A DNA stretch of 64,000 nucleotides from a virus (IMGVR_UViG_3300037483_000453:64001-128000); one strand, 5' to 3'. Counted from the first letter of the stretch, positions 17,964 to 58,241 are shown. The notes: generated from the sequence alone by a model not told the origin. Numbers and translations are program-made.

Positions 17964-17975
17964 TTCTTATCCCTG
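17964..17975 (-). promoter_or_regulatory. Repeated motif copy 1 (CAGGGATAAGAA), candidate phage promoter
   Basis: + strand ttcttatccctg, 47 nt upstream of the minus-strand ATG at 17917; four related copies at 56.7-58.2 kb. Confidence 0.55.
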
Positions 17976-18010
17976 AAAACTCGGTCTATTTGTTATTGGG
18001 GCAGCCCCGC

Positions 18011-18703
18011 TTAGTCGACAATCATGGACACCATGGCCAGCACATCTTCATGAACATCACCGAGGGTTTCTGGAAACAGTTTGTATGCGATCCGTTTATT
18101 TGAGGTAGAGCGAACATAAAAGAACATTGTCTGCCGCATGCCTCGACGAGCCATCTCCAGAAAGTCGAGGGCTGTACTAAACTCAAGGTCATTTTTTAGC
18201 CGTTTGCGCTGCACACTTTGCAACAGCTGGTTGGAGAGACTTAGATAGGATGTCCAGGGTTCCTCTGTTCCGAACTCCTGCGCCACTACATGAAAGTACT
18301 CTTCGCTAAGTGATTGGAATACCTGCGCCCAGTACATGATGGTGTTAACAGTGGGGAGATCTGAAAGCTCTAGCTCTTGCTCTACCTTCAGGTGAAGTGC
18401 TACAACGGCTGACGGCTCAATATCAGCAGATGGAATGTCGGCACCGATGATATTGAGCAACTGAGTCACCTTTCTTTCGAGGCGGTACGCTGTCATCTCA
18501 GCTCGAGCAGCCCTGGCAGCCACGTTGATCAAGGTGGTGTTTGACTCCCGGATCTCCTTCAGTTGGTAAACCTCGTTGGGGTCGTACATGTTGGTGCCTC
18601 TTACAGACCGAGCTCGGATGAGGCCGTCATGTGCCATTTGGTTCAGTCGTCGTTTACTGACCTGTAAAATCTGAGAGGCTTCATCTGAGTTGATGAGTTC
18701 CAT
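18011..18703 (-). CDS. MerR/excisionase-like HTH DNA-binding protein
   Basis: N-terminal INSDEASQILQVSKRRLNQMAHDGLIRARSVRGTNMYDPNEV followed by a coiled coil. Confidence 0.7.
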   Translation of the reverse strand: MELINSDEASQILQVSKRRLNQMAHDGLIRARSVRGTNMYDPNEVYQLKEIRESNTTLINVAARAARAEMTAYRLERKVTQLLNIIGADIPSADIEPSAVVALHLKVEQELELSDLPTVNTIMYWAQVFQSLSEEYFHVVAQEFGTEEPWTSYLSLSNQLLQSVQRKRLKNDLEFSTALDFLEMARRGMRQTMFFYVRSTSNKRIAYKLFPETLGDVHEDVLAMVSMIVD

Positions 18704-18750
18704 ATTTCGCCATACTCCTGGGTGTGTGGTATTTTTGTACCGGAGGACTT

Positions 18751-19956
18751 ATGAACGATCTCCCATCGAGCCTGGCGCTACAACAGAACAACGCAAAGCC
18801 CAAGACTGGGGAAGAGCTAGAGGTACTTGGTAAGGAGGCTGCAACCCAGTTTCTGCGTGGAAACTATGGGTCTCTCACCGATGCAGTGGTTGGAACAGTC
18901 AAGACGTCTGGTCTCTCACCTGAGCAGGTGCGCAGGGTTGTTGAGTTCACTAACGTGGACGCATTCAATCAAGAGTTCAAGAAGGAGGGCTCGGGGCACA
19001 AGGTGGTCCAGTTTGAGGGTGGCCCGGCTGACTACCCAGAGGTCCTGCGTGAGCTCAATGACGGCAGTGGTGGGACGGTATTTGACAAGCACGCACACGA
19101 CTACTCCACACCTCCTCCAAACATGTCGCTTCTGGCGCTGCAGGATGAGGACAAGTTGGGTGTCGAAAATGAGAAGTTGGCAGCAGCCTTTGGGGTGGAG
19201 GGGTACCAGCTGCCCTTTGCTGATCCCTTGCGTGAGGCTCTCGACACCAAGGATAAGTTGGCTCGTGCTGAGGAGGACCTGGCCACTGAGCTCACACACC
19301 TTGAGGGCCAGTACCTCGATATCGTGGACAGCCTAAACCAAGAGGTGAAGCAAGCGTGTCTGGGTGGCATCGAGCTTGGGCAGGTAGTCCAAGCTTGGAG
19401 CACGGTTACCTCGAAGCCCGAGTTTATGAAGGCCGCGTTTGCCCAGCTGACCCCCCGGCTGTTGAAGGGTGAGGTGTACCCCTCAAAGGAAGCGATTGGT
19501 GAGTCACTGTTGAAGACGGCCAGCGCCGGGATGGTCAACCCTGAGCATCCGCTAGTGGTACGATTTCAGGATTTTTGTGAGACACTGACCAAGATGGCAG
19601 AGACCCGAGTCGCTCACGCTGGCGTAGGTGAGCAGATTGACCGACTGGGAACTTTCTTGAAGGCAGCAGCTGCCCCGGGCGAGTTGGCCGGGGCTGTCAA
19701 GGGGACCTGGGAAGCAGCCAAGTCTATGTCTCAGAAGGCGGCACCACTTGTGGGGAAGACTATCAGGGGGGTTGGGGGAGCGGCTGGGGATATTGCTGAG
19801 GTAGCCATTCCTTGGGTGCCAGAGGCTGCGCTAGCAGGCGGTGCCTACAAGGCTCATGACATGGCACAGCGCAGCCCTAGGGTGCAGCGGGCTCTTAGTT
19901 ATGTGCCTGGAACGAAGCAACAGAAGATTCGGCAGTACTACGAACGACAGAGGTGA
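18751..19956 (+). CDS. Putative head core/internal protein, K-x-A rich
   Basis: GGAGG RBS before ATG 18751. About 11 K-x-A motifs and a C-terminal Gly/Ala amphipathic segment. Confidence 0.6.
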   Translation: MNDLPSSLALQQNNAKPKTGEELEVLGKEAATQFLRGNYGSLTDAVVGTVKTSGLSPEQVRRVVEFTNVDAFNQEFKKEGSGHKVVQFEGGPADYPEVLRELNDGSGGTVFDKHAHDYSTPPPNMSLLALQDEDKLGVENEKLAAAFGVEGYQLPFADPLREALDTKDKLARAEEDLATELTHLEGQYLDIVDSLNQEVKQACLGGIELGQVVQAWSTVTSKPEFMKAAFAQLTPRLLKGEVYPSKEAIGESLLKTASAGMVNPEHPLVVRFQDFCETLTKMAETRVAHAGVGEQIDRLGTFLKAAAAPGELAGAVKGTWEAAKSMSQKAAPLVGKTIRGVGGAAGDIAEVAIPWVPEAALAGGAYKAHDMAQRSPRVQRALSYVPGTKQQKIRQYYERQR

Positions 19957-19959
19957 TGT

Positions 19960-20517
19960 GTGGGCAACCCAATAGACGACTACCTCGAGATCACCTCTCA
20001 GAAAACGGCCGGCCTTAGCCAGGCTGTACGTGGTTATCGTAGAGCGTTTGGTGCAGAACAGCTCGGTGGCTTGGCTGGCTCTGCGACCATGGTGGCCGGG
20101 GTTAGCATCCTTGCAGAGGCAGCACGCAGGGCCTACATGGCAGCCACAAAAAGCCTGGACCACAAGCTGATGCTCGAGGTGAATCCGGATTTGGTCGAAA
20201 ACCAGAGTGCCGATCCCAAGATGTTCAGCCAGCACTACAACTCGTTGCGGCGCATGAATCCCCACTTTGCACAGGACCCAGTTGTGGCAGGGGCTTACAT
20301 GCGTCGTATGAGTGAGTTCCCGCACAACGCGGGCTCCATCTTGGTTGAGTCACTAAAGGAAGCCCCGAAGTCCGAGGCCCTCAGAAACTTTAGTGCGGGG
20401 TTGGGCATTGCCCAGCAGGCTGCCGCACCTTCACCGATGGAACAAGCTAGGCTCGAAGAGCAACAGATGAAGCTGCACCGTGCAAAGAGTGAGTCGCAGG
20501 ACGACGCTGGATACTAG
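19960..20517 (+). CDS. Putative internal virion protein with one hydrophobic segment
   Basis: 185 aa; leader IDDYLEITSQKTAG; hydrophobic LGGLAGSATMVAGVSILA. Confidence 0.55.
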   Translation: MGNPIDDYLEITSQKTAGLSQAVRGYRRAFGAEQLGGLAGSATMVAGVSILAEAARRAYMAATKSLDHKLMLEVNPDLVENQSADPKMFSQHYNSLRRMNPHFAQDPVVAGAYMRRMSEFPHNAGSILVESLKEAPKSEALRNFSAGLGIAQQAAAPSPMEQARLEEQQMKLHRAKSESQDDAGY

Positions 20518-20520
20518 CAC

Positions 20521-23385
20521 GTGCTGAAGGTCAGCCATTTCCAGGGTCAGTCTGACTATGGCGTCACTGCTATCCCACTCTTTGGCAAGGCTGACAAAGA
20601 GTTTGAAAAGCATGCATCTTCTGGGCTGCTCCCTGATGTAGTTCGCTACATTGGGGCGTTACGCCCCAGCCAAAGCTCTCAGTATGTCTTGGTCAACGCC
20701 ATGGGCGCTGGCGAGTGGTACGGCAGTAATGTGAATGGAGATAATTTTCCTGAAGCTGGCCTTATCCACATGCCGCCCAACTGGACCGGTGTACCTGTCA
20801 TAGACATGGTTGTGGCTAAGAACTGGGCTTATGGTTTCCCGACGTTCTATAACGCGCATCCCTATGCGCACCACCGTAACAAAGACCCCGGGCGTGCATT
20901 CGGTAATGTGGAACTTGCCACGTGGAACCCACTCATGCGGCGTGTCGAGCTTGTGGTGCGCGTGGATCAGGATAAGTGCATGAGGTATGGGGGCGAGGGT
21001 GTCTGGGATAAGCTGCGTCTTGGGCAGCACCCCGATGTGTCCATGGGTACTCGAGTTCCTTATGACACATGTTTTCCAGCCGGGACCCTTGTCAGAACTG
21101 CCGAAGGCCACAAGGCCATAGAGGATTTGCAACGGGGCGAGTTTGTACTGACGCACACCGGTAAGCTGCTTCAGGTCACGGATACAATGCGGAGGGAGAC
21201 TCAGGATCTTCTTCGCGTACGCTGCTCTGGGCTACCAGATATAGATGTTACTGACAACCACGAGTTCTTGGTGCTGCGGAAAGAGCAGGCCAGGACGTGT
21301 AAAGGTTCGGCGAACGGGCAGAGAGTGCGGCACACGTTCCGGGACGAGTCTAGTACGTGTTCAAGATGCGGTCGTACCCAAGAGTATGAGTTGGACTGGG
21401 CAGCGGTGGAGACGTTGAAGCCAGGTGACTACGTTGCTGTCCCAGCCCATAGGAACAGCGGCTCCTTTGAAGTGTCACCAATCCGCGCTCGGGTAGCGGG
21501 GTATTACCTGGGTGACGGCTACATTCTCAAGCAGCGCACAGGTAAAAAGAAGGATGGTGATTACCGTGACATGGGCGTGGGCTTCTCTGTTGGAACGGTA
21601 GAGGAAGCCCACCTTCAGAGACTCTTGTCAGCTCTCTCTGAGCTAGGGAGCAAGAACGAAGCGCTAGTTTATGATGCTGGCTGCGGTAGGAAAGCGCATA
21701 TAGTCAGCTTGTTCGACCAGGGTCTAGCAGCCTGGCTACAACAGACAGTGGGGAGAACATCCCACGGCAAGCGCATCTCTTCAGAGGTGTACTGCTGGAA
21801 TGAGGAGGCCAGGCTAGAGCTTGTTGCTGGGTACATTGATACAGACGGCTCGTTTGACCTTGCCAGTGGGCAGCTAAGAGTTGCTTCGGTAAATAGGGGC
21901 TTGCTCCTTGATGTGCAGCGTCTGCTCCTGTCCCTTCGGATAACAGCTACTGTCTGCTACGGCGGATCATCCACTGGCTTCAGCGAAACTCCGGTAGTCT
22001 GCTGGTACCTAGTTCTGTCCGGAGCCCAGGCCCAGCGATTTCTTGGCCGTTCTGTGAAGGTCCAGAAGCGGGAAGTCTCCTGGGAGTCTCCGCAGTCATT
22101 CTTCTGGGGAGACTATTGGCTTACCCCAGTGAAGGCTATCGAAGAGCTCGACAAGGAGACCTCTGTCTTCAACATCAGCGTAGATCAGGACGAGAGCTAC
22201 GTGGCTGAGGGGCGGGTCGTCCACAACTGTTCTATCTGCCTTGACTGGGATCTTTACAAAGATGTGCAGTCTCGCCCAGGTAGCGAGGCATCGCCAGGGC
22301 GTAAAATCCTAGAGTTCCACAAACAGAAGAAGTCCAAGGACGGGGTGGGCATCCGAGGTCTATCTGTTACTCGAAAAGATTATTGTGAGCATGCCAAGAA
22401 TCAGATGAACAAGATCCTGCCCGATGGCAGGAAGGTCTGGGTCTACAACGACTACCCGCGTTTCTTTGACATCAGCTTTGTTTATATTGGAGCAGATAAG
22501 ACTGCGAAAGTGATGCTCTTTGTATTTCACAATGGGCAGGCCCATTCTGTGAAGTCTTCTGCCGAGGTGGCTGAGGCTATGGGTACCAAGGAGCCTGATG
22601 AGAAGATTGCCTCTGTGCCAGACGAGTTGCTAAAGTCTGCCTTTGGCAAGTTGGCCAGGCCGAAGAAAGCTGAGATCGACAAAAATACTGTTCCCAGCCA
22701 GTTCGCGGGAAAGGCTGTACCTTTGTTGACTGGGGGTGAGCCTGATGTGCCACGTGAAACTTTAGATGGGCTCGGGGCTCTGCCTATCAAAGATGTCTTG
22801 TCCACACTCACTGGCATGGGCATTGTGCTCAAACCACGGGAGTTTCAAAGGATTACGCTGGTTCATCTAGAAAACAGAGACTTAGCTGATGAACTGGATG
22901 ACAAGAATGAAGTGTTTCCTAGGTCAGGCGAGACTAGATGTATGGACCTTGACAAGGACTCGTACAGACCGGGGTTGGCCCGGTTGCTTCAGTCTCTGAT
23001 GTTTGCTCGCTCAGGCCTGGGCCCCCTAGTAGAGAAGCGGGTGCTAGTATCTACGGGTGGGTTTGAAAAGAAAGAAGCAAGCGTGCCTTCCCATCATGGG
23101 GAACTACTCGCTAAGATTGGCTCTGCTTATAACGGCTATCGGCAGAGCGTCATGACACTAGTAGCCCACACACAAGATCTTCTGGCAGCAAGTGGAACAA
23201 GTCCCGAGCTGAGCAAACTGGCGTGCGCCAGTCCAGAACAGATTTTTACCCCATTGTCTGTTGCCTACCTTCAGTGTGCCCATCTTGATGGGTTTGGGGT
23301 TCCAAGCAATGGGGTGGTAAAACTGTCAACAGACGTAAGTCAACGTGGAGAGGGGTCACCCCTTGAAGAACACGTGGCCAACTGA
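20521..23385 (+). CDS. Prohead maturation protease (HK97/assemblin-type fold) with intein and long C-terminal extension
   Basis: HPYAHHRN, GNVELA, VELVVRVD and DVSMG (candidate nucleophile Ser at 21040), located upstream of scaffold-like genes and the MCP. Confidence 0.75.
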   Translation: MLKVSHFQGQSDYGVTAIPLFGKADKEFEKHASSGLLPDVVRYIGALRPSQSSQYVLVNAMGAGEWYGSNVNGDNFPEAGLIHMPPNWTGVPVIDMVVAKNWAYGFPTFYNAHPYAHHRNKDPGRAFGNVELATWNPLMRRVELVVRVDQDKCMRYGGEGVWDKLRLGQHPDVSMGTRVPYDTCFPAGTLVRTAEGHKAIEDLQRGEFVLTHTGKLLQVTDTMRRETQDLLRVRCSGLPDIDVTDNHEFLVLRKEQARTCKGSANGQRVRHTFRDESSTCSRCGRTQEYELDWAAVETLKPGDYVAVPAHRNSGSFEVSPIRARVAGYYLGDGYILKQRTGKKKDGDYRDMGVGFSVGTVEEAHLQRLLSALSELGSKNEALVYDAGCGRKAHIVSLFDQGLAAWLQQTVGRTSHGKRISSEVYCWNEEARLELVAGYIDTDGSFDLASGQLRVASVNRGLLLDVQRLLLSLRITATVCYGGSSTGFSETPVVCWYLVLSGAQAQRFLGRSVKVQKREVSWESPQSFFWGDYWLTPVKAIEELDKETSVFNISVDQDESYVAEGRVVHNCSICLDWDLYKDVQSRPGSEASPGRKILEFHKQKKSKDGVGIRGLSVTRKDYCEHAKNQMNKILPDGRKVWVYNDYPRFFDISFVYIGADKTAKVMLFVFHNGQAHSVKSSAEVAEAMGTKEPDEKIASVPDELLKSAFGKLARPKKAEIDKNTVPSQFAGKAVPLLTGGEPDVPRETLDGLGALPIKDVLSTLTGMGIVLKPREFQRITLVHLENRDLADELDDKNEVFPRSGETRCMDLDKDSYRPGLARLLQSLMFARSGLGPLVEKRVLVSTGGFEKKEASVPSHHGELLAKIGSAYNGYRQSVMTLVAHTQDLLAASGTSPELSKLACASPEQIFTPLSVAYLQCAHLDGFGVPSNGVVKLSTDVSQRGEGSPLEEHVAN
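21070..22227 (+). mobile_element. Intein with LAGLIDADG endonuclease in the prohead protease (386 aa)
   Basis: Starts CFPAGTLV, ends RVVHN, +1 Cys. VAGYYLGDG and LVAGYIDTDG motifs. Excision gives VPYDT-CSIC. Confidence 0.93.
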
Positions 23386-23416
23386 GACAACCACGGATTC
23401 ATCAGGAGATAGCATC

Positions 23417-24085
23417 ATGTCAATGGACCAGGAACTCGCCGACATGTACGGCACCACCACGGAAGACCAGGAGAAGGTCGCGGAAGTAGCCTTGTTTGCC
23501 AAGCTGGCGGCAAAGCATGAGATCGATTTGAGCAAGTACAGTGACGAACAGGTCGTCGAGATGTACGAGGCCACTATGGGGAAAACCGCTGAAGAGGAGC
23601 TCCCTGATGATGAGCAGGAGGCCAAGTTGGCTGCGGCAGCTCAGGCTGAGTTTCAGGTGAAGCGCGAGTGGCAGGAAAAGGTCGCAGAGTGTGACAAGCT
23701 CGGCCGCGTCATGGCACATGCCTACGTGCAGGAGCTGGGATTGATCGAGAAGGCTGCGGGTGAGGTTCCTCCTCAGTTTGCCAAGAAGGACGAGGGGGAG
23801 AAGAAAGACAAAGAGTCCGAGGAACCCAAGGACGAGGAGGGCAAGGACGAGGAGAAGGAGGCATCGGCTGTCGATGTACTTGCTGCTCGTCATGCTGTGG
23901 AGCTGGCCAAAGAGGCTGGCATCGATCCCGCCATTGCTGCTCGGAAACTTGATGCGGTGCTGACCCTAGGGGGTCCTGGACCCAGTGAGAAGACCGCGTC
24001 GGCGAACTCCTTCGAGGAGTCCATTCACATCCGTGCGCTCGAGTTCCTCGAGACTGCGGGTTACCCAGTTGCTTGGGCGGAATAG
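23417..24085 (+). CDS. Acidic scaffold/core-like protein
   Basis: AGGAG RBS before ATG 23417; E/K-rich helical; 9 K-x-A motifs in 222 aa. Confidence 0.6.
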   Translation: MSMDQELADMYGTTTEDQEKVAEVALFAKLAAKHEIDLSKYSDEQVVEMYEATMGKTAEEELPDDEQEAKLAAAAQAEFQVKREWQEKVAECDKLGRVMAHAYVQELGLIEKAAGEVPPQFAKKDEGEKKDKESEEPKDEEGKDEEKEASAVDVLAARHAVELAKEAGIDPAIAARKLDAVLTLGGPGPSEKTASANSFEESIHIRALEFLETAGYPVAWAE

Positions 24086-24115
24086 ACCAGTAGGACCGAG
24101 GCATGGGCGACCAGG

Positions 24116-25495
24116 ATGAACAGAAAACTTGCAGAGTCAGCTGGATCGGCACCGCCCGATCCAGCGATGTCGCAAGCAGCTGCGTCGCCCATACCTTCTC
24201 CTGCGCTAGCGAACAAGACAGCCCCAGGGCAAACCGGTCCACGAGGGCTCTCACCCCGGACCACCTATTCCCGAGTGAACACTGGAACTCCTCCCCCTTC
24301 GATGGCGCTTGCCGGTCTCAAGGGCATGCCTGCACGGGGCTCTGAGTTCTTGCCTGCGAAAGTAGCCGAGGTACATACAATGAACATGGCAGAACGACCG
24401 ACCCTGCAGGATATGATCAAGTCTGCGATGGCTGGCACTGTTGCACGTGTCAACGTCAACGATGAGGCGGCACGACAACTGGCGGTTCACCAAGGGGAGG
24501 ACCCTGAGAAGGTGGCCAGTGTTGACGATCTACCGGACCACTACACAACCGACCATATCGAAAAGATGGCATCGGCCCTCGACTATATTGCGGGGGAGAT
24601 CAAAGTCGCCGATGAAGGCAACGTTCAGCAGCCGGGTCAGGGCCCTGGGGCCTTGGATGTTTTGGAAGCTACCTCGTCAGAGGAGAATATTGATGCAGGT
24701 GAGGCTGGCAGGGCTATCACTCAGCATCTACCCAAGGACGACCCACCCCAGCAGAAGGAGGAGGTCCAGGTGGGTAAGGCCAACACGGGCATGGAGACCA
24801 ATGATGGCACCATGCACCCGGAACAACCTGTCAAGCCCATCGTGAACCAGAACGCTAGCATCACTCCAGCGAACCCACTGTCAACTCCCACTACTCAGAC
24901 CAAAGAGTCTTCGGTCAACCTCGGGGTTGCCAACTTCGAGCGCCTGAAGAAGGTTAGTGAGCTCCACGGCAAGTACAGTAAGAACAAAGAGGCTGGTGTC
25001 AATGTGGCCCTCATTCGCAAGCTTGCAGAGGACGCACTCAGCCCTGCAGGTATCGAGGCAGGTAAGCAGGACATGCCCGATTACTCTGCATCGGAGCAGA
25101 GTGTTCCAGCGCAGCCTGCCGATGTGAAGCGGCAAGCACGTTCGATGCTCGGCAGCAACGAGGCTGCAATCGGCTACACCAAGCAGGAGGCAAAGGCCGA
25201 TCCCATTGGTGACGTCAATCAAGTACTTGCACAGCCTGCGATGACACGAAAGAACGATCCTGTTCTTCACAAGGTTCTCGACAATACAGGCGCAGCAGGT
25301 GTGAAGATTTCGTCTGTCAATGACTCGGTCAAAGTTGCTGCAGCACGCGCACTGTTGTCAAACATGATGGATAAGGCAGCGGCGGAAAAAGAAGAACAGA
25401 GTGAAGATAAAAAGAAGGAGAAGGCGTCACAGATGGGCGCTGCTCCCTCTTCTCCTTCCGCCGCTTCCGGTTTCACCGCTTCTAGTCTAAGCTGA
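24116..25495 (+). CDS. Scaffold/core-like protein, largely disordered (alternative start 24380)
   Basis: 459-aa P/E/Q/A-rich ORF with about 11 K-x-A motifs, in the head operon. Confidence 0.6.
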   Translation: MNRKLAESAGSAPPDPAMSQAAASPIPSPALANKTAPGQTGPRGLSPRTTYSRVNTGTPPPSMALAGLKGMPARGSEFLPAKVAEVHTMNMAERPTLQDMIKSAMAGTVARVNVNDEAARQLAVHQGEDPEKVASVDDLPDHYTTDHIEKMASALDYIAGEIKVADEGNVQQPGQGPGALDVLEATSSEENIDAGEAGRAITQHLPKDDPPQQKEEVQVGKANTGMETNDGTMHPEQPVKPIVNQNASITPANPLSTPTTQTKESSVNLGVANFERLKKVSELHGKYSKNKEAGVNVALIRKLAEDALSPAGIEAGKQDMPDYSASEQSVPAQPADVKRQARSMLGSNEAAIGYTKQEAKADPIGDVNQVLAQPAMTRKNDPVLHKVLDNTGAAGVKISSVNDSVKVAAARALLSNMMDKAAAEKEEQSEDKKKEKASQMGAAPSSPSAASGFTASSLS

Positions 25496-25502
25496 GGTAC
25501 AC

Positions 25503-25862
25503 ATGGCAGATCTCGACAAAGAGAAGGTAGCGAAGGTACTGGCGGATAGCGCACAGGCGCTCCGGTCTGTCACTGCAGAGCGCGACAAGCTGGCGGAACA
25601 GAACTACAGGATGAGCCGTCACTTTGAAGCACAGAAGCTCGCAGCCGTGATGCACGAGAAGGGCATCAACATGGATGTGGACACAGAGGCTCTCGTAGAC
25701 AAGCTCGAGAAGGCTGCGGAAGCTGGTCGGCTACCTGCGATTCAGGAAGCCATGGATATGATGGCGCCCAACATGGGCTTCACTGGAACACTCACGAATG
25801 ATGATGTCCACGGTAGTGGCGAAACGGCTTTCGAAAGCTTCATCATTGGTGGCGTTGGCTGA
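25503..25862 (+). CDS. Small coiled-coil scaffold-like protein
   Basis: 119 aa with KVAK, KLAE, KLAA, KAAE and C-terminal FESFII. Confidence 0.6.
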   Translation: MADLDKEKVAKVLADSAQALRSVTAERDKLAEQNYRMSRHFEAQKLAAVMHEKGINMDVDTEALVDKLEKAAEAGRLPAIQEAMDMMAPNMGFTGTLTNDDVHGSGETAFESFIIGGVG

Positions 25863-25886
25863 TAGGCCTAAAAGGAGAGCATTCAA

Positions 25887-26411: not shown

Positions 26412-26454
26412 TCCTCGGCTGGTCCGTAGGGAGAAGGGAAGAAGGCACAAGACC

Positions 26455-27573: not shown

Positions 27574-27591
27574 CATCGGCATGCTCGACGG

Positions 27592-27628: not shown

Positions 27629-27688
27629 CGTGGGCAAGATTGAACATAGCGGGGGCGCTAAGGGCTCCAATAGTGAAGGAGGAATGAC

Positions 27689-50754: not shown

Positions 50755-51080
50755 CGCTTCCTCAGCAACAGAGGCAGAGTGGTGAGACCGGCACACCCAA
50801 TACGATTCAGCACGTTGTGCCGATGCATCCGTATGCGGTGCAGTACTATGATGAGAACGGTCGTGAGTGCAACACCATCGTCTACAAGATGGGCGATACG
50901 GTGTACTTCGACCGTAACGCAGAGCGCTGGGCAGCTGGCCTTGCTCGAGCGGCGGCCTACATCAAGGACGCAGTGAATGCTGAGCACGCAGCCTTCTTGG
51001 CGCCTACCACTCCAGGTGATGATGGTGTTGATATCCTCGCTCAGGAGGAAGCCGATGCGCAGGATCCAACGACTCCGTAG
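50724..51080 (+). CDS. Hypothetical protein
   Basis: 118 aa with GGAGAG RBS. Confidence 0.5.
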   Translation: MQPGERPHGVTLPQQQRQSGETGTPNTIQHVVPMHPYAVQYYDENGRECNTIVYKMGDTVYFDRNAERWAAGLARAAAYIKDAVNAEHAAFLAPTTPGDDGVDILAQEEADAQDPTTP

Positions 51081-51402
51081 CGACTACATGCTGGTCGAGC
51101 TCGATGCCATCCCTGAGAGAACAGCAGGTGGGATCATTCGAGTTGGTTCACTGGACCGGGGCAAAGAGCCAATCCGTACTGGCGTGGTTCTTATGGCGGG
51201 CCCTGGTCGACGCTACACCGACAAGTTCGTGCCTATGCCTAACGACGTCATCGGTATGCGTGTGGCATTCATGATCGCTGCGGCACAGACAAAGGGTGGG
51301 AGGGTCCTTCGAGATACCCTTGCGCTTGATAACGACCATGAAATCATTCGTTTGGGTGATGTCCTTTTTGACGTCGATGAGGATGTTGAGGTGTCAAGGT
51401 GA
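51055..51402 (+). CDS. groES: Co-chaperonin GroES (Cpn10)
   Basis: RLRSDYMLVE...ERTAGGIIRVG...TGVVLMAGPG...HEIIRLGDVL matches the Cpn10 pattern; AGGAGG RBS before ATG 51055. Confidence 0.85.
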   Translation: MRRIQRLRSDYMLVELDAIPERTAGGIIRVGSLDRGKEPIRTGVVLMAGPGRRYTDKFVPMPNDVIGMRVAFMIAAAQTKGGRVLRDTLALDNDHEIIRLGDVLFDVDEDVEVSR

Positions 51403-51659
51403 GGTTGATCACAGTAAATAGCGGCACGGTGGAACTGAACTACATGTGGCTTCCTACGTTCATCGGGCAGAATGCCACGTTCAAGAAAAAGCTTGAAGAG
51501 GACTTGCGTGACAAGATTGAGGGGCGTGAGGTCACCCCAGCTAACTTAGATGACATCAACAGTCTGGTACTCAGCTACATCTGTGAAACTTTCAAGTTTA
51601 CGGGGCTCAACGACTACCTGGATGGGTTGAAGTTTGTACTGGAAGGGACCAATGGCTAG
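51399..51659 (+). CDS. Hypothetical protein
   Basis: 86 aa, GTGA overlap. Confidence 0.55.
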   Translation: MRLITVNSGTVELNYMWLPTFIGQNATFKKKLEEDLRDKIEGREVTPANLDDINSLVLSYICETFKFTGLNDYLDGLKFVLEGTNG

Positions 51660-51822
51660 TCGAGATGCACGCGTGTCGATCAGGGTGCCTGACACGCTCA
51701 AGCAGTGGGCAGTGGGTTATGCCAAGGAGCACAACACCACTGTCACTGCCTTGGTTACAAGGTTTCTCACACGGCTGCACCAAGAGGACGCCAAGCGCCA
51801 AGCTGACGCGGAGCAAGTCTAG
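51652..51822 (+). CDS. Ribbon-helix-helix (CopG/Arc-like) DNA-binding protein
   Basis: RVSIRVPDTLKQWAVGYAKEHNTTVTALVTRFL. Confidence 0.75.
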   Translation: MASRDARVSIRVPDTLKQWAVGYAKEHNTTVTALVTRFLTRLHQEDAKRQADAEQV

Positions 51823-52394
51823 TGTCAGAGCTGCATCTAGTCACCCATTCCATCGATGTGCCCAAGAACACTGGTATCGAAGGGTTCATGCTCACTATAC
51901 GCGAGCTTCTCAAGCTTGCTAGGCTGCAGTCCATCAGCATTGATGCCAAGGGCAAGGTTACCTACAAGAGGTATGTGGAGGAGGGTGAGAAGCAGAAAAT
52001 CGGTGTGGACTATGAAGGCGTTGAGCCATGGCACATCACACGTAATGCCCCCGATGGTGTGGAGGAGTTGATGCTCAACACTCCTAACGCCGCTGTTACC
52101 CTAGCTGGGGTTCTGGACCGGTCGTCCCAGGAGAAGCTGCACCCAACGGCATTTGTGGTTAGCCCCAATACCACCCTGTGGTGGTGGTACCAGCACACAA
52201 CTGGTTTTTCCCTGGGCTCTCATAAGCACCTGTGTGGCCTACCTATCTACTTTGATAGGCACATCCCAGACACGGCACTCATCTTGTGCTCATCGTTTGT
52301 GAGAGACGGGGCCCTTGTAGATACACAAAAGGCGTTCAAGATAGAGATGGGTTACTCCGTGGCACCAGCAATAGATATGGAGATACAAGTATGA
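51822..52394 (+). CDS. Hypothetical protein
   Basis: 190 aa. Confidence 0.55.
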   Translation: MSELHLVTHSIDVPKNTGIEGFMLTIRELLKLARLQSISIDAKGKVTYKRYVEEGEKQKIGVDYEGVEPWHITRNAPDGVEELMLNTPNAAVTLAGVLDRSSQEKLHPTAFVVSPNTTLWWWYQHTTGFSLGSHKHLCGLPIYFDRHIPDTALILCSSFVRDGALVDTQKAFKIEMGYSVAPAIDMEIQV

Positions 52395-52885
52395 CTAAGC
52401 CAGTAACCAAGGCAGTTGTGAGTGCGGGAATCGTGGATGGTGATGCTCTGGCCCAGATCCAACGATGGATTCAGCCGGGCTTAACCATGGATAACTGGGT
52501 CGAAGATGGGGAGGCTGTCGTGTCAGCTGCAGCCGTGGCACAAAAGATCATGGAAGCGGTGGAGTCTGAGGAGGCTATAGAGATTCGGTCTACTGACCTG
52601 GACATCATCTCGCAGTACCTGGCATCTAGGAGGAGAGCCAAACTGCATGTGCCTAATCCTGATAATCCTGAGAAGACTGTGGGCATCCCGGTTGAGTACT
52701 GTAAGACCCGCTTGGGTGAGATTGTGATCCCATGGACCTCAGAATCTATCAACGATACTATTCTTGACGATCGCACGTACCTCAAGCCCGTAGGTGAAGA
52801 TCGGATCTACTTTGCAGATGTACGTGAGTTGTTTCATGGAGGGCACAAGGCATTCATGGTCTGCGAGCCGGCGAAGGGGAAGTAA
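52391..52885 (+). CDS. Hypothetical protein
   Basis: ATG 52391 overlaps the previous stop, GGAG RBS. Confidence 0.55.
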   Translation: MTKPVTKAVVSAGIVDGDALAQIQRWIQPGLTMDNWVEDGEAVVSAAAVAQKIMEAVESEEAIEIRSTDLDIISQYLASRRRAKLHVPNPDNPEKTVGIPVEYCKTRLGEIVIPWTSESINDTILDDRTYLKPVGEDRIYFADVRELFHGGHKAFMVCEPAKGK

Positions 52886-52887
52886 GC

Positions 52888-53325
52888 GTGACTCACGATA
52901 CACTGAAAAGGGTGCTCGCATCCAAAGCCGGTTTCGAGCCCATCGAGGAACAGGTAGGTGACAACCGTATTCGATATTTTGGCCGGGTGCGCCCGCACAA
53001 CATGGGTACTTGGTTGGAGACTATGCGAAGTTTGCTAGTTGCCTCTGGCCAGTCCCAGTGGACAGCAGACTTGTCAAAGCAGTACTTCCTGCGGGGAGAT
53101 AAAGTTTTCTTCGGGTGGCGTATTATCATCCAAGGTCCTGACGTAGCCCAGCACCTGGCCCACATCGTGCAAGTGGTCAACGCAGCCAAGATTGTGGAGC
53201 ACCAGCTCGATGAGGTATCCCTGCATGCGCCTCCTAACCGTAATGCTTTGCATAACGGTAAAGGTGCTCAGGGCATGCTCAATGCAGTGGTTGGTCCAAG
53301 GGCCAAAGCGCAAATGGGGCTGTAA
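52888..53325 (+). CDS. Hypothetical protein
   Basis: 145 aa. Confidence 0.55.
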   Translation: MTHDTLKRVLASKAGFEPIEEQVGDNRIRYFGRVRPHNMGTWLETMRSLLVASGQSQWTADLSKQYFLRGDKVFFGWRIIIQGPDVAQHLAHIVQVVNAAKIVEHQLDEVSLHAPPNRNALHNGKGAQGMLNAVVGPRAKAQMGL

Positions 53326-53981
53326 TGGCCACTGTAACCCCACTGGCTGATCCATTAGGACTTGCACCATCCAATCCTTTTATGGATGCGGAGGAGAAAG
53401 AGGTCCTTGAGAAGCGGAAGTCTGCGCTCGACAAGTTGCTCGAGGAGCAGAACATTGCGAAGTACAAGATCGAGATCTTGTTCGCCAAAAACTACTCCCC
53501 TAGCAAACCATCAGCTGGCATTATGTCGTTCTGGGAGAGTGGTACCAAACTTCATGGAGGGGGGGATACCATCCTTCACATGTGCCCAGGCAAGGACCTA
53601 GGGAAGAACAACTGTGATGCCTTCATACCTGACGCTTCCCACGGTTACGAGTTCCTGGTCTGCCCGGTATGTCATGTAGTCTGGGAAGGGGCACAGGTTT
53701 CTGGTCAGATAGCCTATAGGCTCACAGCCCAGGATTGGGCTAAGGTTGTGCTAAAGTACTATCAGAAGTTGGAGATGAGAGCGGACATCTACATGAAGTA
53801 CCACCCACAAGATATCCGTACTGCTGCCGCGCTAGAGCAATCGAAGCAGCATATGGGTGATATGCTCCTTGGTGCTCGCCGCAGTCGTCGTCCACGCATA
53901 TATCCTCTGTCCAATATCCTCAAAGACACAAGCGCAGGGGCCGACCTTGAAGCTCGCTTCCTTGCATTCCTGAGGGCATGA
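53325..53981 (+). CDS. Hypothetical protein with Cys4 zinc module
   Basis: CPGKDLGKNNC...CPVCH. Confidence 0.6.
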   Translation: MATVTPLADPLGLAPSNPFMDAEEKEVLEKRKSALDKLLEEQNIAKYKIEILFAKNYSPSKPSAGIMSFWESGTKLHGGGDTILHMCPGKDLGKNNCDAFIPDASHGYEFLVCPVCHVVWEGAQVSGQIAYRLTAQDWAKVVLKYYQKLEMRADIYMKYHPQDIRTAAALEQSKQHMGDMLLGARRSRRPRIYPLSNILKDTSAGADLEARFLAFLRA

Positions 53982-54301
53982 TGAGCTCAGTGAGAACAAA
54001 CCCTGCATACGCATCTTTGGCCTACCGCAGAACCATCATCCACCAGGCCATCACGTACCTGAAGCGTGAGTTTGTGGGGGTAGACGAGGACCCTAAGCAG
54101 AGAATGGTCTGCGAGGAGGTTCTTGCAGTTGATGCAGAAGTGCCCATCGAGGAGGTAGCCAGCTACCTACAGGAGCTCGAGCGGGAAAAACACGAACTAA
54201 CACTGGAACTCGGTAAGTTCGAGTTCACTAGGCGGAATCAGAATGATGACCAAAAGCAGCCAAAAGCGAAGAGTCAAGCGCGGCATAAAAACCGCAAGTA
54301 A
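53978..54301 (+). CDS. Hypothetical protein
   Basis: 107 aa. Confidence 0.5.
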   Translation: MMSSVRTNPAYASLAYRRTIIHQAITYLKREFVGVDEDPKQRMVCEEVLAVDAEVPIEEVASYLQELEREKHELTLELGKFEFTRRNQNDDQKQPKAKSQARHKNRK

Positions 54302-54749
54302 AAAGACCGCTCAAGCCATTGCCAAGAATAACGGTTTGGATATCTCCATGGAGGTTTCGGCCGATCCACTGGTGCAGGGAGCTAAAATTTCAGCTCTTGA
54401 GAAGGCTCTGGAGCGTGTCGTTCACATGTCACAGGTTAACCAGGCCGAGCTCATCAGAGCTTTCCAACTCACCGATGCCCATCTCTGGGTACTTCGTCAA
54501 CTTTGCAAAGACATCGTCACTGACACCGTTATGCTTGTGGACTCGGAAACCCCTGCGGTGAACATGGATGCCTACTACAGCCTTTTCAACGCGAAGCAGC
54601 GGCAGGAGGCTGAGGCCGAGGCCGCTGCGAAGGCGCTCAAAGATGCTGGTGTGACACCTTTGGAGTCTGATAGTCCGGAGGTCTTCGGGGGTACCCCTGC
54701 GGGTCACACCGCAGTACCAACGGAGGAGACCAATGGCGCGCATCCGTAA
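54243..54749 (+). CDS. Hypothetical protein
   Basis: 168 aa. Confidence 0.5.
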   Translation: MMTKSSQKRRVKRGIKTASKKTAQAIAKNNGLDISMEVSADPLVQGAKISALEKALERVVHMSQVNQAELIRAFQLTDAHLWVLRQLCKDIVTDTVMLVDSETPAVNMDAYYSLFNAKQRQEAEAEAAAKALKDAGVTPLESDSPEVFGGTPAGHTAVPTEETNGAHP

Positions 54750-54924
54750 AGGCACTCAGTCCCTGGGCAATGGCAAGGTCATGATCAAAACCAACTCAGC
54801 CAAGGGCGTTAGGAAGATCCGGTGTATGAGGTGTAAGAATCTCGTTGCGCCTTCCCAGGGTAACGACGGTAAGCCGGTCTATCGTTGCATCTGTGGTAGG
54901 TCGTTCCGCAGCACTACAATGTAG
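54733..54924 (+). CDS. Small basic zinc-ribbon protein
   Basis: CMRC...CICG; GGAGGAG RBS. Confidence 0.6.
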   Translation: MARIRKGTQSLGNGKVMIKTNSAKGVRKIRCMRCKNLVAPSQGNDGKPVYRCICGRSFRSTTM

Positions 54925-55306
54925 AGCGGTGCATCAACCAACTCTTCTTCAGCTGCCCTATGATCCTGAAGTGATGCCCGAGATACATCCGGACGGCCCG
55001 ACTGTTCGTCTTCTCCACGCACAGGATGGTGTCCAGCTTGGTGCTTCCGAGCACATCAAGCAGCATTCGGTTCCCCAGGCCTCTGCCTTGGTGAGATGGC
55101 CTCACTCCGAAACGGGTGATGTCCATGATTTCCCAGTCCCAGCGGGCCAGCAGGTAGCTTACGAGCTCGCCTTTTTCATAGATGACAATGCCACCACCGG
55201 CATCGACTTCTCGAGCTAGTGTGCGTTCATTGAAGCTATTGTTGGGGAATAGCTCCATGTCCAGTGCGGCAATGGCCTGGACGTCTGCACTGGTAACGCT
55301 TTGCAT
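54914..55306 (-). CDS. GNAT (RimI-like) acetyltransferase
   Basis: ITRFGVRPSHQGRGLG acetyl-CoA motif and LCVEKTNSRAVRMYLGHHF. Confidence 0.85.
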   Translation of the reverse strand: MQSVTSADVQAIAALDMELFPNNSFNERTLAREVDAGGGIVIYEKGELVSYLLARWDWEIMDITRFGVRPSHQGRGLGNRMLLDVLGSTKLDTILCVEKTNSRAVRMYLGHHFRIIGQLKKSWLMHRSTL

Positions 55307-55344
55307 GACTGGATAGTAACAAAAGATTGTGTTAGGAGGAGCCC

Positions 55345-55596
55345 ATGGAGAGACTCAGCAAAGTTCAGGTGCTCATCAATGGTAAAGGGACTCTCGAGAA
55401 GGAGGTTGATGAGGACATCGCCGCCTTCGCACAGTATTTCTGTGGAGAACTGAAGAATGCTTCACTCTCGAGGCCAGAGCGGGCGATACTGAAGACATAT
55501 CTGTTTTACAAGACACGGGTGTGTGTCTGTGGAGAAGATGATAACAGGGACCCGAGTAAGTCCCTTCCTCATAAGACCTGGTGCCCGCTGGGCTAG
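55345..55596 (+). CDS. Hypothetical protein with C-terminal CxC...H..C
   Basis: AGGAGGAG RBS, 83 aa. Confidence 0.55.
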   Translation: MERLSKVQVLINGKGTLEKEVDEDIAAFAQYFCGELKNASLSRPERAILKTYLFYKTRVCVCGEDDNRDPSKSLPHKTWCPLG

Positions 55597-56021
55597 GCAT
55601 CAGTGTGTTTAAGCTAACTAGGCCCACCTTTGGTGGAAGGCTCATTAGGAGGATCCCAGTGGCAAAGAAGAACGTAGTTGAGATCACTTGTGACCGTTGT
55701 GACCGAACTGAATACGTGGATCCCAGCACGTACAACGTACATGCGGACCTGGAGCTGTACTTTGGACCTAGAAAGGGGGAGCACGAGGCGGATGACATCG
55801 CCGGTCATTCAACATGCGAGATTCTGGCTCATTTCAATGACCTGTGCTCGAGCTGCCGAAAAACGGTAAAGAACCTGTCCGAGCAGATCGCCAAGAAAAT
55901 CTCCTGGAAGCGCAACAAAGGCGGCGAGGAGGAACTCGATGATAAAAAAGGAGGACCAGCGGTCCCCCCTTCTACCCCTACGCTGCGTCTCGAGACTGAC
56001 GGTCAGGTGCCCTCAGTTTGA
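55581..56021 (+). CDS. Zinc-finger protein (true start probably near 55659)
   Basis: ITCDRCD...DLCSSC pattern. Confidence 0.55.
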   Translation: MPAGLGISVFKLTRPTFGGRLIRRIPVAKKNVVEITCDRCDRTEYVDPSTYNVHADLELYFGPRKGEHEADDIAGHSTCEILAHFNDLCSSCRKTVKNLSEQIAKKISWKRNKGGEEELDDKKGGPAVPPSTPTLRLETDGQVPSV

Positions 56022-56628
56022 TGAGGTTTGGCCTCATCCCCGAGGGTGTCAGCCGGTACATTACAAAGGGTGGCTCGGAGCCCCTGGGTAAAGCCACCCG
56101 GAAGGCGGCCCCTGGGTGCATGATGAACAGAGCACCGCCTGCGACCTCCGCTACCATCTCGATACCCACCACTTCATCTAGTGGGGGGTAGTTGCGGATT
56201 ACCTTGAGACCGTCCGTGCCCCTGGCACTTACGCTCTCCACTTTGTAGCACCCCGTAGCCCGGTAGCCCTGGGGCTGTGGTCGCATCAGGTGCACCAGGG
56301 CACGCCGGTCCAGGTCATTGCCTGGGCGACTGACAAGGCAGCATTTTGCCAAGTCCTTCAAGTGTCCCGTTGGCTGGGTTACCAGCCCTTCTTCAGTGAA
56401 CTCAGTATTCATGAGGGTTGGCAAAGCCAACTGCTTGCCCTTTAGGGCTGGCAGTTCCAATGCTTTTTGGTCCAGATTGATCATCTGGTCAAACCAGTCC
56501 TGGGACACAGCCAGAAACGTCTCAGTGTCACCAACGCTAACCCCTGGACAGCTGGCTGGTACCGAGGAGTTCTTGATGCGGATGCCCCGCTCGACTTCGC
56601 TACCCGCGACTAATGTGAAGCAGTACAT
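55978..56628 (-). CDS. Hypothetical protein
   Basis: 216 aa, downstream of a motif copy. Confidence 0.55.
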   Translation of the reverse strand: MYCFTLVAGSEVERGIRIKNSSVPASCPGVSVGDTETFLAVSQDWFDQMINLDQKALELPALKGKQLALPTLMNTEFTEEGLVTQPTGHLKDLAKCCLVSRPGNDLDRRALVHLMRPQPQGYRATGCYKVESVSARGTDGLKVIRNYPPLDEVVGIEMVAEVAGGALFIMHPGAAFRVALPRGSEPPFVMYRLTPSGMRPNLIKLRAPDRQSRDAA

Positions 56629-56678
56629 ACATCTCCCGTCTGTGCGATGTTGAACCGTAGGATGCTTGTCCTACAGCT

Positions 56679-56690
56679 TTCTTATCACCG
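56679..56690 (-). promoter_or_regulatory. Repeated motif copy 2 (CGGTGATAAGAA)
   Basis: + strand ttcttatcaccg, 51 nt upstream of ATG 56628. Confidence 0.45.
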
Positions 56691-56711
56691 CACAGACGGG
56701 AGGCTTTGCGT

Positions 56712-56984
56712 TCAGCCAGCGCAGGCCAGTGGTGCCTCTAGCGTCAAGGACTCTAGAAGAGCGGTGGTATGTCGAACTGCACTGTCGATGACCTCGGTAC
56801 CCGTAGGCTCTACATGGTGGAGGGTCGTGAGGGCACACAGGGCGTCAGTCACAGAGAAGACTTCCAGCCCGCGGAGCTGGGCAGCCTCATCCTCGAAGCC
56901 GCCCCGTATCATCTCCGTGCAACACATTTCGATCATGACTGTCGCGTCACCAAAGCTTGTAGGTTCTAGGAATGTAGTCCGCAT
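56712..56984 (-). CDS. Hypothetical protein
   Basis: 90 aa, AAGGAG RBS. Confidence 0.55.
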   Translation of the reverse strand: MRTTFLEPTSFGDATVMIEMCCTEMIRGGFEDEAAQLRGLEVFSVTDALCALTTLHHVEPTGTEVIDSAVRHTTALLESLTLEAPLACAG

Positions 56985-57068
56985 GGTATTACTCCTTTTT
57001 GCGGGAGCTATTGACAGAACACTAATGCACTGAGAGTAGAAAGTCCAATGGTCAATAAATGCGGAGGT

Positions 57069-57278
57069 CTAGTCTGGGATGATGGCGTCACAAGTGTACC
57101 CACAGTTAGTACATTTGCAGTTGTACCATTGTCCCACAACTTCTGATGGTCCAGCCTGCCGCGCATCGAGCTTACGCTCGAGCGTTCCTTTGCAGTTAGG
57201 GCATATACCAGATCGAATAAGGGCGTTTTCGGCCTTGATAGCCTTCAGGTGCTGTAGATACCCGAGTTGTTCCTTCAT
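57069..57278 (-). CDS. Zinc-ribbon protein
   Basis: GGAG RBS before ATG 57278; CPNCKG...CTNCGY. Confidence 0.6.
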   Translation of the reverse strand: MKEQLGYLQHLKAIKAENALIRSGICPNCKGTLERKLDARQAGPSEVVGQWYNCKCTNCGYTCDAIIPD

Positions 57279-57361
57279 AGTTTCTCCGTGGGGCTGGGGC
57301 GCACAAGGGCAGTCACCATTGGAAGCTAAAAGAGAGGGCAAAAGCCCTCCCTCTACACTCT

Positions 57362-57754
57362 TCACCCGATCCAGCGCTTCAACCCGATCCAGCTCAGCTG
57401 GCTCGCGATCATGACGACGAGGCCAGTTGTTCCGACCTTCGCGCACTTCATGTTGAAGGTCTCATCCACCTGGTTGTTGGTGCGGCCCACCCCTGGCTTC
57501 GCGCTTGCATGGGTCTGGTTTTGTGTCTGCTCGGTCATCCTGCTCTCCGTTTTGTTTGAGGCGAATCGCCTCGGGACATTTTTCTTATCACTGTGTTTCT
57601 GCGATTTTGCTAGCTCTGGGCGCATCAACCCACTTTTGTAGTAGGCATTCATGAGCGCCTCCGCGCTCATGTGGTGCACCAGGGGCCTTGGTGGTTTTCG
57701 TGACCTCTTGGACCCCTCTTTTACTGCCACTTCCTTTGCTGTGCCATCCTCCAT
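57362..57754 (-). CDS. Hypothetical protein with C-terminal hydrophobic segment (internal start at 57538 also plausible)
   Basis: 130 aa; internal GGAG RBS and ATG at 57538. Confidence 0.4.
   Translation of the reverse strand: MEDGTAKEVAVKEGSKRSRKPPRPLVHHMSAEALMNAYYKSGLMRPELAKSQKHSDKKNVPRRFASNKTESRMTEQTQNQTHASAKPGVGRTNNQVDETFNMKCAKVGTTGLVVMIASQLSWIGLKRWIG
57582..57593 (-). promoter_or_regulatory. Repeated motif copy 3 (CAGTGATAAGAA)
   Basis: + strand ttcttatcactg, 44 nt upstream of ATG 57538. Confidence 0.45.
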
Positions 57755-57764
57755 GGGGTCTCCT

Positions 57765-58004
57765 TCACTCGGCCCTATGTGACTGCTTGCGCTGCAACCC
57801 CCGCCTGAAGGCGGACACTTTGTCTTCGTTGGTCATGGTGTCCCACAACCGAAGGTCATCCTCGGTCACTACGACTTTGATGTCCTTCTCCACAAATGAC
57901 CGCCCAGGTCTTTTGTGGAGTATGTCCTTCAAGTAGCAGTGCTGGACCAGTACTTCATCGATGGCCAGGAGGCACGCTGCAACTCCTATAAGTGCTGTAA
58001 CCAT
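57765..58004 (-). CDS. Small hypothetical protein
   Basis: 79 aa, AAGGAG RBS. Confidence 0.55.
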   Translation of the reverse strand: MVTALIGVAACLLAIDEVLVQHCYLKDILHKRPGRSFVEKDIKVVVTEDDLRLWDTMTNEDKVSAFRRGLQRKQSHRAE

Positions 58005-58023
58005 ATTCGTCTCCTTCCATGTG

Positions 58024-58034
58024 TCTTATCCCTG
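58024..58034 (-). promoter_or_regulatory. Repeated motif copy 4 (CAGGGATAAGA)
   Basis: + strand tcttatccctg, 20 nt upstream of ATG 58004. Confidence 0.55.
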
Positions 58035-58058
58035 GCTGTTACACGTTTTTTCATAGGT

Positions 58059-58229
58059 AAAAAGGCGCCGGGCGGCGCCAAGAACCCGGTGCCTACTAAG
58101 ACACCGGGTCCTCTCGGAGAGAGATGTTGAAGGAGACCCCTCGACAAGGTGCCCCACCCGGCGACTCGAACCCACTGGGGCTCTTAACAACAGCAGCTGC
58201 CACCCAGAGCTTGCTACTCCTGTCCATGG
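58059..58229 (-). ncRNA. Candidate ~170-nt structured small RNA
   Basis: Lies between motif copy 5 and a ggcgcc-gggc-ggcgcc hairpin plus T5. Contains hairpins 58084-58109 and 58111-58123 and a tRNA T-loop-like GGTTCGAGTC. Confidence 0.4.
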
Positions 58230-58241
58230 TTCTTATCCCTG
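58230..58241 (-). promoter_or_regulatory. Repeated motif copy 5 (CAGGGATAAGAA)
   Basis: + strand ttcttatccctg, identical to copy 1. Confidence 0.55.

Follow-up and report, generated by a model that had tools for sequence, protein, structure and literature searches.

Analysis of a 64,000-nucleotide (nt) stretch of viral DNA, bases 64001-128000 of a 184,901-bp IMG/VR phage contig (IMGVR_UViG_3300037483_000453; 99% complete, 55% GC) and hereafter the window, indicates that a short signal built on GATAAGA is very probably a promoter. Judging from its aligned sites, the signal appears to be the core of a two-box promoter of the sigma type, comprising a -35 box, an extended -10, a -10 hexamer and a start site. 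The class it defines is probably an early one, since the sites precede small accessory genes and an anti-restriction-type methyltransferase, and since the genes for the phage's sigma factor and RNA polymerase (RNAP) are placed among virion genes and have homologs that were detected in virions of Salmonella phage Arash. On balance we lean toward the view that a phage holoenzyme delivered with the virion uses the sites as early promoters, a reading drawn from sequence and from analogy with Arash.

Occurrence and strand bias of the GATAAGA signal

In the window the consensus CRGKGATAAGA (R, A or G; K, G or T) has exactly five matches, all on the minus strand, compared with 0.09 expected by chance, and none of 100 shuffles reached five:

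17965-17975, minus strand, CRGKGATAAGA copy
56680-56690, minus strand, CRGKGATAAGA copy
57583-57593, minus strand, CRGKGATAAGA copy
58024-58034, minus strand, CRGKGATAAGA copy
58231-58241, minus strand, CRGKGATAAGA copy

The original prediction, made by reading the window alone, had proposed five same-strand copies, and it was right about the sites and their strand, the positions it gave being off by one. It had also placed four copies 20-51 nt from the start codons of small genes; the gaps read from the sequence agree with this (47 nt to the ATG at 17917, 51 nt to 56628, 44 nt to 57538 and 19 nt to 58004), but the copy at 57583 falls within a 130-residue open reading frame (ORF) if the upstream ATG of that frame is used. 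That no copy precedes plus-strand genes is true of the window and not of the rest of the genome, where sites at 135037 and 164445 do. A simple consensus scan found no canonical TTGACA/TATAAT pair near the window copies, as had been stated, because positions -12 and -7 of the element (numbering given below) are G; the statement that no -35/-10 pair is present nonetheless missed the conserved upstream box that belongs to the motif itself. A nucleotide search with the promoter cluster against known phages gave no match, and the motif strings, looked up in the literature, turned up in unrelated primers only, with no published promoter description found.

The strand and intergenic bias for which a genome-wide scan had been proposed is present. 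Across the whole genome all ten matches to CRGKGATAAGA are on the minus strand, G[GT]GATAAGA has 14 minus-strand and no plus-strand matches, and a position matrix built from the informative alignment columns finds, at a cut-off score of at least 14, 19 minus-strand and three plus-strand sites versus 0.2 in shuffles. With genes called by a simple ORF model, no 7-mer is more enriched than GATAAGA in front of minus-strand genes, where ~7 kb of sequence holds 15 of its 25 genomic copies (33-fold, P=3e-18); the upstream regions of plus-strand genes yielded no comparable k-mer, just ribosome-binding words being enriched there. The sites, at 20-60 nt from the start codons, head clusters of small genes and not the replication block (31.9-49.1 kb) or the virion genes, and several lie directly after intrinsic terminators (the 58034 site after that at 58079-58064, others outside the window), which fits the predicted starts described below. 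Of the few sites on the plus strand, most pair back to back with a minus-strand site between divergent genes.

Architecture of the predicted promoter

We aligned the 16 minus-strand copies that are intergenic in this genome, then added three relatives for an alignment of 49 intergenic sites, picked by G-n-GATAAGA only, so that all other conserved columns are independent evidence. With the G of GATAAGA counted as 0, the 49 sites have G at -22 (33/49), C at -21 (34/49), A at -20 (41/49) and A at -19 (44/49), these two adenines being promoter positions -32 and -31; they further have C at -4 in 38 (promoter C-16), T at +11 in 36 (promoter T-1), a purine at +12 in all 49 (promoter +1) and A at +14 in 41, after which comes a purine-rich Shine-Dalgarno stretch. 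In promoter numbering, used from here on, the element reads GCAA at -34 to -31, an 18-nt stretch with C-16 and an invariant G-14, GATAAG at -12 to -7, A-6, T-1 and a purine at +1. The hexamer thus takes the form (G/T)ATAAG with its invariant A set at -11, a register fixed by the T/purine step 7 nt downstream, and the GCAA box stands within the 16-18 bp from the hexamer at which a -35 element is sought. The T at -7 of the primary-sigma hexamer TATAAT is not the conserved base here, G predominating at this position in the 12 genomes compared below. Transcription is predicted to start 7 nt past the hexamer, often just 10-19 nt before the start codon, because of the frequencies of T-1 and of the purine at +1. 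A single-box promoter in the style of phiKZ, as originally envisaged, is not what the alignment shows, given the conserved GCAA 18 nt upstream, the G-14 and the T/purine at the predicted start. No inverted repeat of the kind that forms N4-type hairpins is conserved among the aligned sites, and an N4-type virion RNAP promoter was rejected on this ground.

Conservation of the element across the phage lineage

A scan of IMG/VR identified 147 loci encoding relatives of the phage RNAP. We repeated the unbiased k-mer test on ten full IMG/VR relatives, Arash and this phage (12 genomes), the IMG/VR relatives examined having 54-64% GC and RNAPs 43-75% identical and coming from unrelated samples. In every genome a version of the same element was the top word upstream of genes opposite in strand to the RNAP gene: GGGATAAGA in G003, G004, G005, G014 and G024, GGAATAAGA or GATAAGA in G026, (T/C)ATAAGA in G002, and GGTATAAG in G006, G007 and G021. 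The shared core GNNATAAG had a minus-strand and intergenic bias in all 12. Lineages differ in the base at -12, which is G, T or T/C, but share a constant ATAAG and G-14, and they also retain the GCAA/GAAA box and the T/purine further downstream. At -7, G occupies 248 and T 32 of 352 intergenic sites over the 12 genomes, Arash behaving in the same way; elsewhere in these genomes the background is 34% G and 13% T, and there is no enrichment of T at the sites.

Arash, which is cultured, has the same promoter class in the form tGGTATAAG(T/A), with ~30 intergenic minus-strand sites. Its top upstream word is TGGTATAAG(T/A), and 21 of its 31 copies of GGTATAAG lie in upstream regions (P=4e-24); exact GATAAGA is not enriched in Arash, its lineage variant TATAAG being enriched instead. 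The paper describing Arash uses the word "promoter" 0 times (PMC10585845). As the element is kept over 54-64% GC and in unrelated samples, and as the sigma-70 and sigma-28 consensus sequences of Salmonella are unlike TGGTATAAG, the promoter specificity appears, from these comparisons, to travel with the phage.

The phage sigma factor and RNA polymerase

Two genes are candidates for encoding the reader of these sites:

window 3-7259, plus strand, C-terminal 2,418 codons of the fused beta-beta' RNAP gene, in a 3,259-codon open frame starting before the window
genome 136634-137422, plus strand, sigma factor gene, homolog of Arash gp10, outside the window

By its family profile and modeled fold, which carry the assignment because single-sequence scores are weak, the product of the second gene is a divergent group-3-like sigma factor. 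The family has more than 100 metagenomic homologs, many with the Pfam domain Sigma70_r3, and its profile matched solved sigma factors over regions 2 to 4 (E=4e-12). An AlphaFold model of the protein has a mean predicted local distance difference test (pLDDT) score of 88.9, and the matches listed by Foldseek were all sigma factors, Bacillus subtilis SigD coming first and SigB, SigA and WhiG also being among them. Of 39 family members, 19 matched the FliA/WhiG model and 30 the SigB/F/G model (best E-values of 3e-11 and 2.6e-11), with bit scores far under the curated cut-offs of 190-234; membership of either subfamily was rejected as all scores fell below these cut-offs. Of 22 long relatives 20 carry the gene, and none of the 13 with at least 90% completeness lacks it; gp10-type factors are the only sigma factors that travel with the motif. 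We found no other sigma-like locus in this genome, searches with Sigma70_r2 and extracytoplasmic function (ECF) profiles being empty; a Sigma70_r4 match at genome 5208-5324 was rejected as a sigma factor, its ORF looking by eye like an HNH homing endonuclease. PHROG annotation of the neighbors of the sigma gene was uninformative. A plus-strand site at genome 135037 (L005:7037) has a GCAA box and GTGATAAGC, scores 21.7 and lies 21 nt before a four-gene block that ends in the sigma gene, which could therefore be transcribed from its own promoter class.

The RNAP frame carries beta and then beta' in one chain, with inteins, and is the only RNAP in the genome; no alpha homolog was found in this genome. 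The original prediction correctly described the enzyme as fused, but its likening to phiKZ-like RNAPs does not hold, since the chain is a bacterial-type beta-beta' and not a split enzyme of the phiKZ type. The N-terminal clamp domains of beta' are kept (Rpb1 domains 1 and 2), and we regard the fused chain as the candidate core enzyme for these promoters. In this phage and in Arash alike, the RNAP gene is found between those for the portal and the terminase, and the closest cultured relatives of the chain are in Arash and Vibrio phages D69, D148 and D181 (~35% identity). The Arash RNAP (gp206/gp216), sigma factor gp10, portal and terminase are homologous to those of this phage. Unlike this phage, Arash has split beta and beta' subunits and a second annotated sigma factor, gp196, which has no homolog in this genome, a partial one in G014, and is missing from nearly all relatives. 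Proteomics of purified Arash particles yielded more spectra for beta gp206 than for any other protein and also recovered beta' gp216 and sigma gp10 (PMC10585845).

Intein-type insertions (Hint, Intein_splicing, LAGLIDADG and Hom_end matches) occur in the RNAP, in the portal protein and in a 954-residue protein of the virion region, with these coordinates in addition to those of the RNAP:

window 20521-23385, locus with an intein-type insertion
L003:14047-17331, locus with an intein-type insertion

The five window sites and the units downstream

Extended to the predicted promoter, the five window sites and their surroundings are as follows:

17959-17993, minus strand, putative promoter A, ACAA at -34 to -31, C-16, G-14, GATAAG at -12 to -7 (17971-17966), predicted start 17959
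56674-56708, minus strand, putative promoter B, GCAAA box, CGGTGATAAGA, predicted start G 56674, score 26.3
57577-57611, minus strand, site C, the weakest copy, score 11.4 (other window sites 26-37)
58018-58052, minus strand, putative promoter D, predicted start G 58018, score 33.9, directly after a terminator
58225-58259, minus strand, putative promoter E, ACAAAA box, CAGGGATAAGA, predicted start G 58225, score 33.4
15980-17917, minus strand, promoter A operon: 83- and 93-residue ORFans, 246-residue DNA methyltransferase (phrog_56), 131-residue CxxC protein, 83-residue ORF
18011-18703, gene for a MerR/helix-turn-helix (HTH) protein, adjoining promoter A
55978-58004, minus strand, genes of promoters B-D: small ORFans of 79, 130, about 68, 90 and 216 residues
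58050-58224, minus strand, short unit E, between promoter E and an intrinsic terminator
58064-58079, minus strand, intrinsic terminator GGCGCC-GCCC-GGCGCC then TTTTT, ending unit E just before promoter D

Promoter A, with a matrix score of 37.1, the highest in the genome, heads the operon of five small genes that includes the DNA methyltransferase. The operon resembles an anti-restriction cassette that was acquired and put under the promoter of the lineage. The segment 16000-18000 that holds it is a 62% GC island in the 55% GC genome. At promoter B, an RNA begun at the predicted start would open exactly on a 6-bp hairpin (GUAGGA-caagca-UCCUAC), and a hairpin at the RNA 5' end fits that start. 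A 13-bp inverted repeat, TCCCGTCTGTGCG ... CGCACAGACGGGA, flanks promoter B (56634-56701, minus strand), its upstream arm lying in the promoter spacer and its downstream arm over the ribosome-binding site (RBS) of the 216-residue gene; as only the downstream arm would be transcribed, the repeat may be a regulatory site acting at the DNA level. Site C lies within the 130-residue ORF (57362-57754) if the upstream, RBS-bearing ATG of this ORF is used, with an internal in-frame ATG (57538) 44 nt further on; the copy may have arisen by chance or act as a promoter within the ORF. Promoter D has a Shine-Dalgarno GGAG 3 nt past its predicted start, with the ATG at 58004. None of the ORFans served by promoters B-D had a family match.

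The original prediction also placed one copy before a structured RNA. The ~170-nt stretch after the 58231 copy, i.e., unit E, does fold strongly (minimum free energy -85.9 kcal/mol, z=-4.7 versus shuffles); a doubtful 43-residue ORF is the alternative, and unit E is either a structured ~170-nt RNA or this ORF, which would lose its own ATG to the predicted start. It had no Rfam match, contained no transfer RNA (tRNA) and was not conserved among 11 relatives, and searches of the window and of the unit E RNA for tRNAs, transfer-messenger RNA (tmRNA) and Rfam families found nothing. A T-loop-like GGTTCGAGTC in unit E was rejected as part of a tRNA, the tRNA searches being empty.

Other sequence elements in the genome

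Three sites outside the window form inverted pairs of the type TTATC-N(6-10)-GATAA:

L006:14669-14675 (genome 162669), inverted pair
L006:16428-16451 (genome 164428), inverted pair
L007:15774-15793 (genome 180774), inverted pair

The pairs at 162669 and 164428 are in divergent intergenic regions with each half facing its own gene, and look like back-to-back promoters with common -10 regions; that at 180774 has no plus-strand gene nearby. Downstream of the 162669 promoter, at L006:13047-13510 on the minus strand, are a phage tmRNA (tag ANDNGTVAQRLAA) and an adjoining tRNA-Thr(CGT) call, and both may be part of the 162669 transcription unit. A repeated word, AGATCGTGTAG(C/T)CAGCACAAAT followed by a CA-rich run, occurs at L007 ~4700-5100 (upstream of genome 169722 and 170052) directly before two neighboring minus-strand genes without GATAAGA, and may be another regulatory or promoter element.

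We looked for a second promoter class in this phage and in five of its close relatives, using exact 6-8-mers and 8-mers with a single mismatch allowed. Upstream of the plus-strand genes for the RNAP and virion proteins these searches found Shine-Dalgarno words, a weak GG(G/C)TATAC and a weak CCTAAA, and nothing else. GG(G/C)TATAC occurs at genome 14535, 77075 (window 13075), 103073 (window 39073) and 108057 (window 44057), 25-70 nt before plus-strand virion genes (tail-fiber-like, terminase), with P=4e-6, which is borderline after multiple testing; it is a weak candidate for a second class. Arash (OQ632216), in contrast to the weak candidates of this phage, has a clear second motif before structural genes, CTAAAAT(a) (L189-L197, e.g., 128083, 137630, 139406 and 142676), located mostly 20-55 nt before plus-strand genes including that for the portal. 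Seven of the 13 TAAAATA copies in the Arash genome are in plus-strand upstream regions (P=4e-12), and CTAAAAT(a), which abuts the reverse complement of the early-type GGTATAAG at two sites, is likely a late promoter.

A model for use of the sites and its rivals

We propose that the promoter would drive short leftward units of small accessory genes, among them the DNA methyltransferase, various ORFans, a structured small RNA and probably the tmRNA, presumed to be of an early or host-takeover class. Its reader would be the phage group-3-like sigma factor bound to the single-chain beta-beta' RNAP. On the analogy of Arash, the virion would carry both and bring them into the cell, and the sites would then be transcribed ahead of all others with no need of the host enzyme. 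A further reading, to which we give slightly less than even odds, is that phages of this large and hardly studied lineage hold in their particle a minimal, self-contained transcription machine of the bacterial type, one beta-beta' chain and one group-3-like sigma factor with no alpha, that reads a private G-7 promoter. A number of observations weigh against the model. The sequence fits a phage sigma factor on the phage core and on the host core alike, and the phage's own sigma protein reached just E=0.006-0.15 against curated sigma models. The sigma residues equivalent to R436, Q437 and T440 of E. coli showed no clean co-variation with the base at -12 in 11 sequences, and one of the five window copies (57583) has a low score and lies inside a probable ORF. 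The case for virion delivery is carried over from Arash, with which this phage has 16 of ~240 genes in common and whose particle proteome comprised 116 proteins including metabolic enzymes, the authors noting that abundant infection proteins may co-purify (PMC10585845).

A phage sigma factor working on the host core RNAP, as in the sigma appropriation by T4 gp55 and SPO1 gp28, with the phage beta-beta' serving other genes, would account for the fully bacterial geometry of the promoter and for the missing alpha homolog, and phage sigma factors of the sigma-70 family, to which the reader belongs, normally do redirect the host core (PMC7598289, PMC7824862). We nevertheless consider this unlikely, as the sigma gene and the fused RNAP are found together in every complete relative, both proteins were detected in Arash particles, a bacterial-type beta-beta' with its clamp domains could plausibly bind a sigma factor, and a second promoter class for the phage enzyme is not detectable. 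It is more improbable still that an unmodified host holoenzyme reads the sites, whether with sigma-28/FliA or with the primary sigma factor acting on an extended -10. The register is indeed that of sigma-28 promoters, and the Arash motif TGGTATAAG is one base off the extended -10 consensus TGnTATAAT; yet G at -7 makes such use unlikely, this position being selected as G, not T, in 12 of 12 genomes including that of a Salmonella phage. Furthermore, the GC at -15/-14 of sigma-28 promoters is replaced by C-16 and G-14, the T-type lineages lack the CGA core of the sigma-28 -10 sequence GCCGATAA, and the motif is constant over the GC range and the unrelated samples of the lineage while a phage-encoded sigma factor travels along with it. 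We give very little credence to the idea that the sites are operators for a phage regulator, e.g., the MerR/HTH protein encoded beside promoter A. The three inverted repeats outside the window would suit an operator, as would the position of the HTH gene, but most sites are non-palindromic, two of the three repeats (162669 and 164428) look like divergent promoter pairs, and strict orientation, fixed -35/-10 spacing and a T/purine 7 nt downstream are properties of promoters.

Comparison with known promoter systems

In RNAP-encoding jumbo phages the virion RNAP has as its promoter a conserved motif of ~10 nt, centered near -10 and found ahead of early operons, and middle and late promoters escape prediction (PMC7598289); this genome shows a like picture. 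The early promoters of the phiKZ/AR9 virion RNAPs resemble those described here in having a short motif near -10 that was found by sequence just before presumed early operons, and in being paired with a multisubunit-type phage RNAP, virion detection coming here only via the cultured relative Arash. They differ in that the sites of this phage also have a -35-like box and an extended -10 G, in that the phiKZ/AR9 enzymes have four or five split subunits whereas this phage has one RNAP set with a single fused bacterial-type beta-beta', and in that a true member of the sigma-70 family is encoded here, such a factor being absent from phiKZ-like phages (PMC7824862). Membership of the phiKZ/AR9 promoter type was rejected in view of the second conserved box and the encoded sigma-70-family protein. 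The motif is restricted here to leftward units of small genes, and evidence of RNAP packaging comes from Arash particles.

The sigma-28 class (TAAA-N15-GCCGATAA) is a closer match in register. The Pseudomonas aeruginosa fliC promoter has (-36)TCTAAAG(-30) and (-15)GCCGATAA(-8), with A-11 flipped out (PMC12784957), and the class shares with the phage sites GATAA at -12 to -8, AA at -32/-31, an 18-nt gap between the boxes, an implied extended -10 contact and a group-3-type sigma factor as reader. In the -35 box, the bases flanking the coincident AA are G and C in the phage, not T and A as in TAAA(G). The extended -10 of sigma-28 promoters is G-15 C-14, whereas the phage sites have C-16 and G-14 with any base at -15; G-7 and A-6 are conserved in addition, -12 is T or C in sister lineages, and the phage sigma factor falls far below the FliA family cut-offs. 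Because GC at -15/-14 is missing and the sister lineages have TATAAG, we rejected assignment to the sigma-28/FliA -10 class (GCCGATAA at -15 to -8).

Extended -10 promoters of sigma-70 (TGnTATAAT) share G-14, A-11, T-10, A-9 and A-8 with the phage sites, and a start ~7 nt on at a purine after a pyrimidine. They have a near-universal T-7, a T-12 and TTGACA, where this phage has G-7, G-12 and GCAA. In promoters of the cellular sigma-70 family the T at -7 is flipped out. If our reading is true, the invariant G-7 of the phage sites would offer a natural test of the way in which region 2 of a sigma factor takes hold of the -10 element, implying a changed -7 pocket in the sigma factor and a transcription start independent of the host. 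As Arash is cultured and has the same promoter class, the model would be directly testable, and annotators of this metagenomic phage lineage could use the motif in practice to mark early genes. The motif would then be the recognition sequence of a phage sigma factor that works with a single-chain, bacterial-type phage RNAP. Such a combination would be unusual, because reviews treat an own RNAP and an own sigma factor as alternative strategies, phiKZ-like phages having RNAPs without sigma factors and other jumbo phages sigma factors without RNAPs (PMC7824862); this lineage has both.

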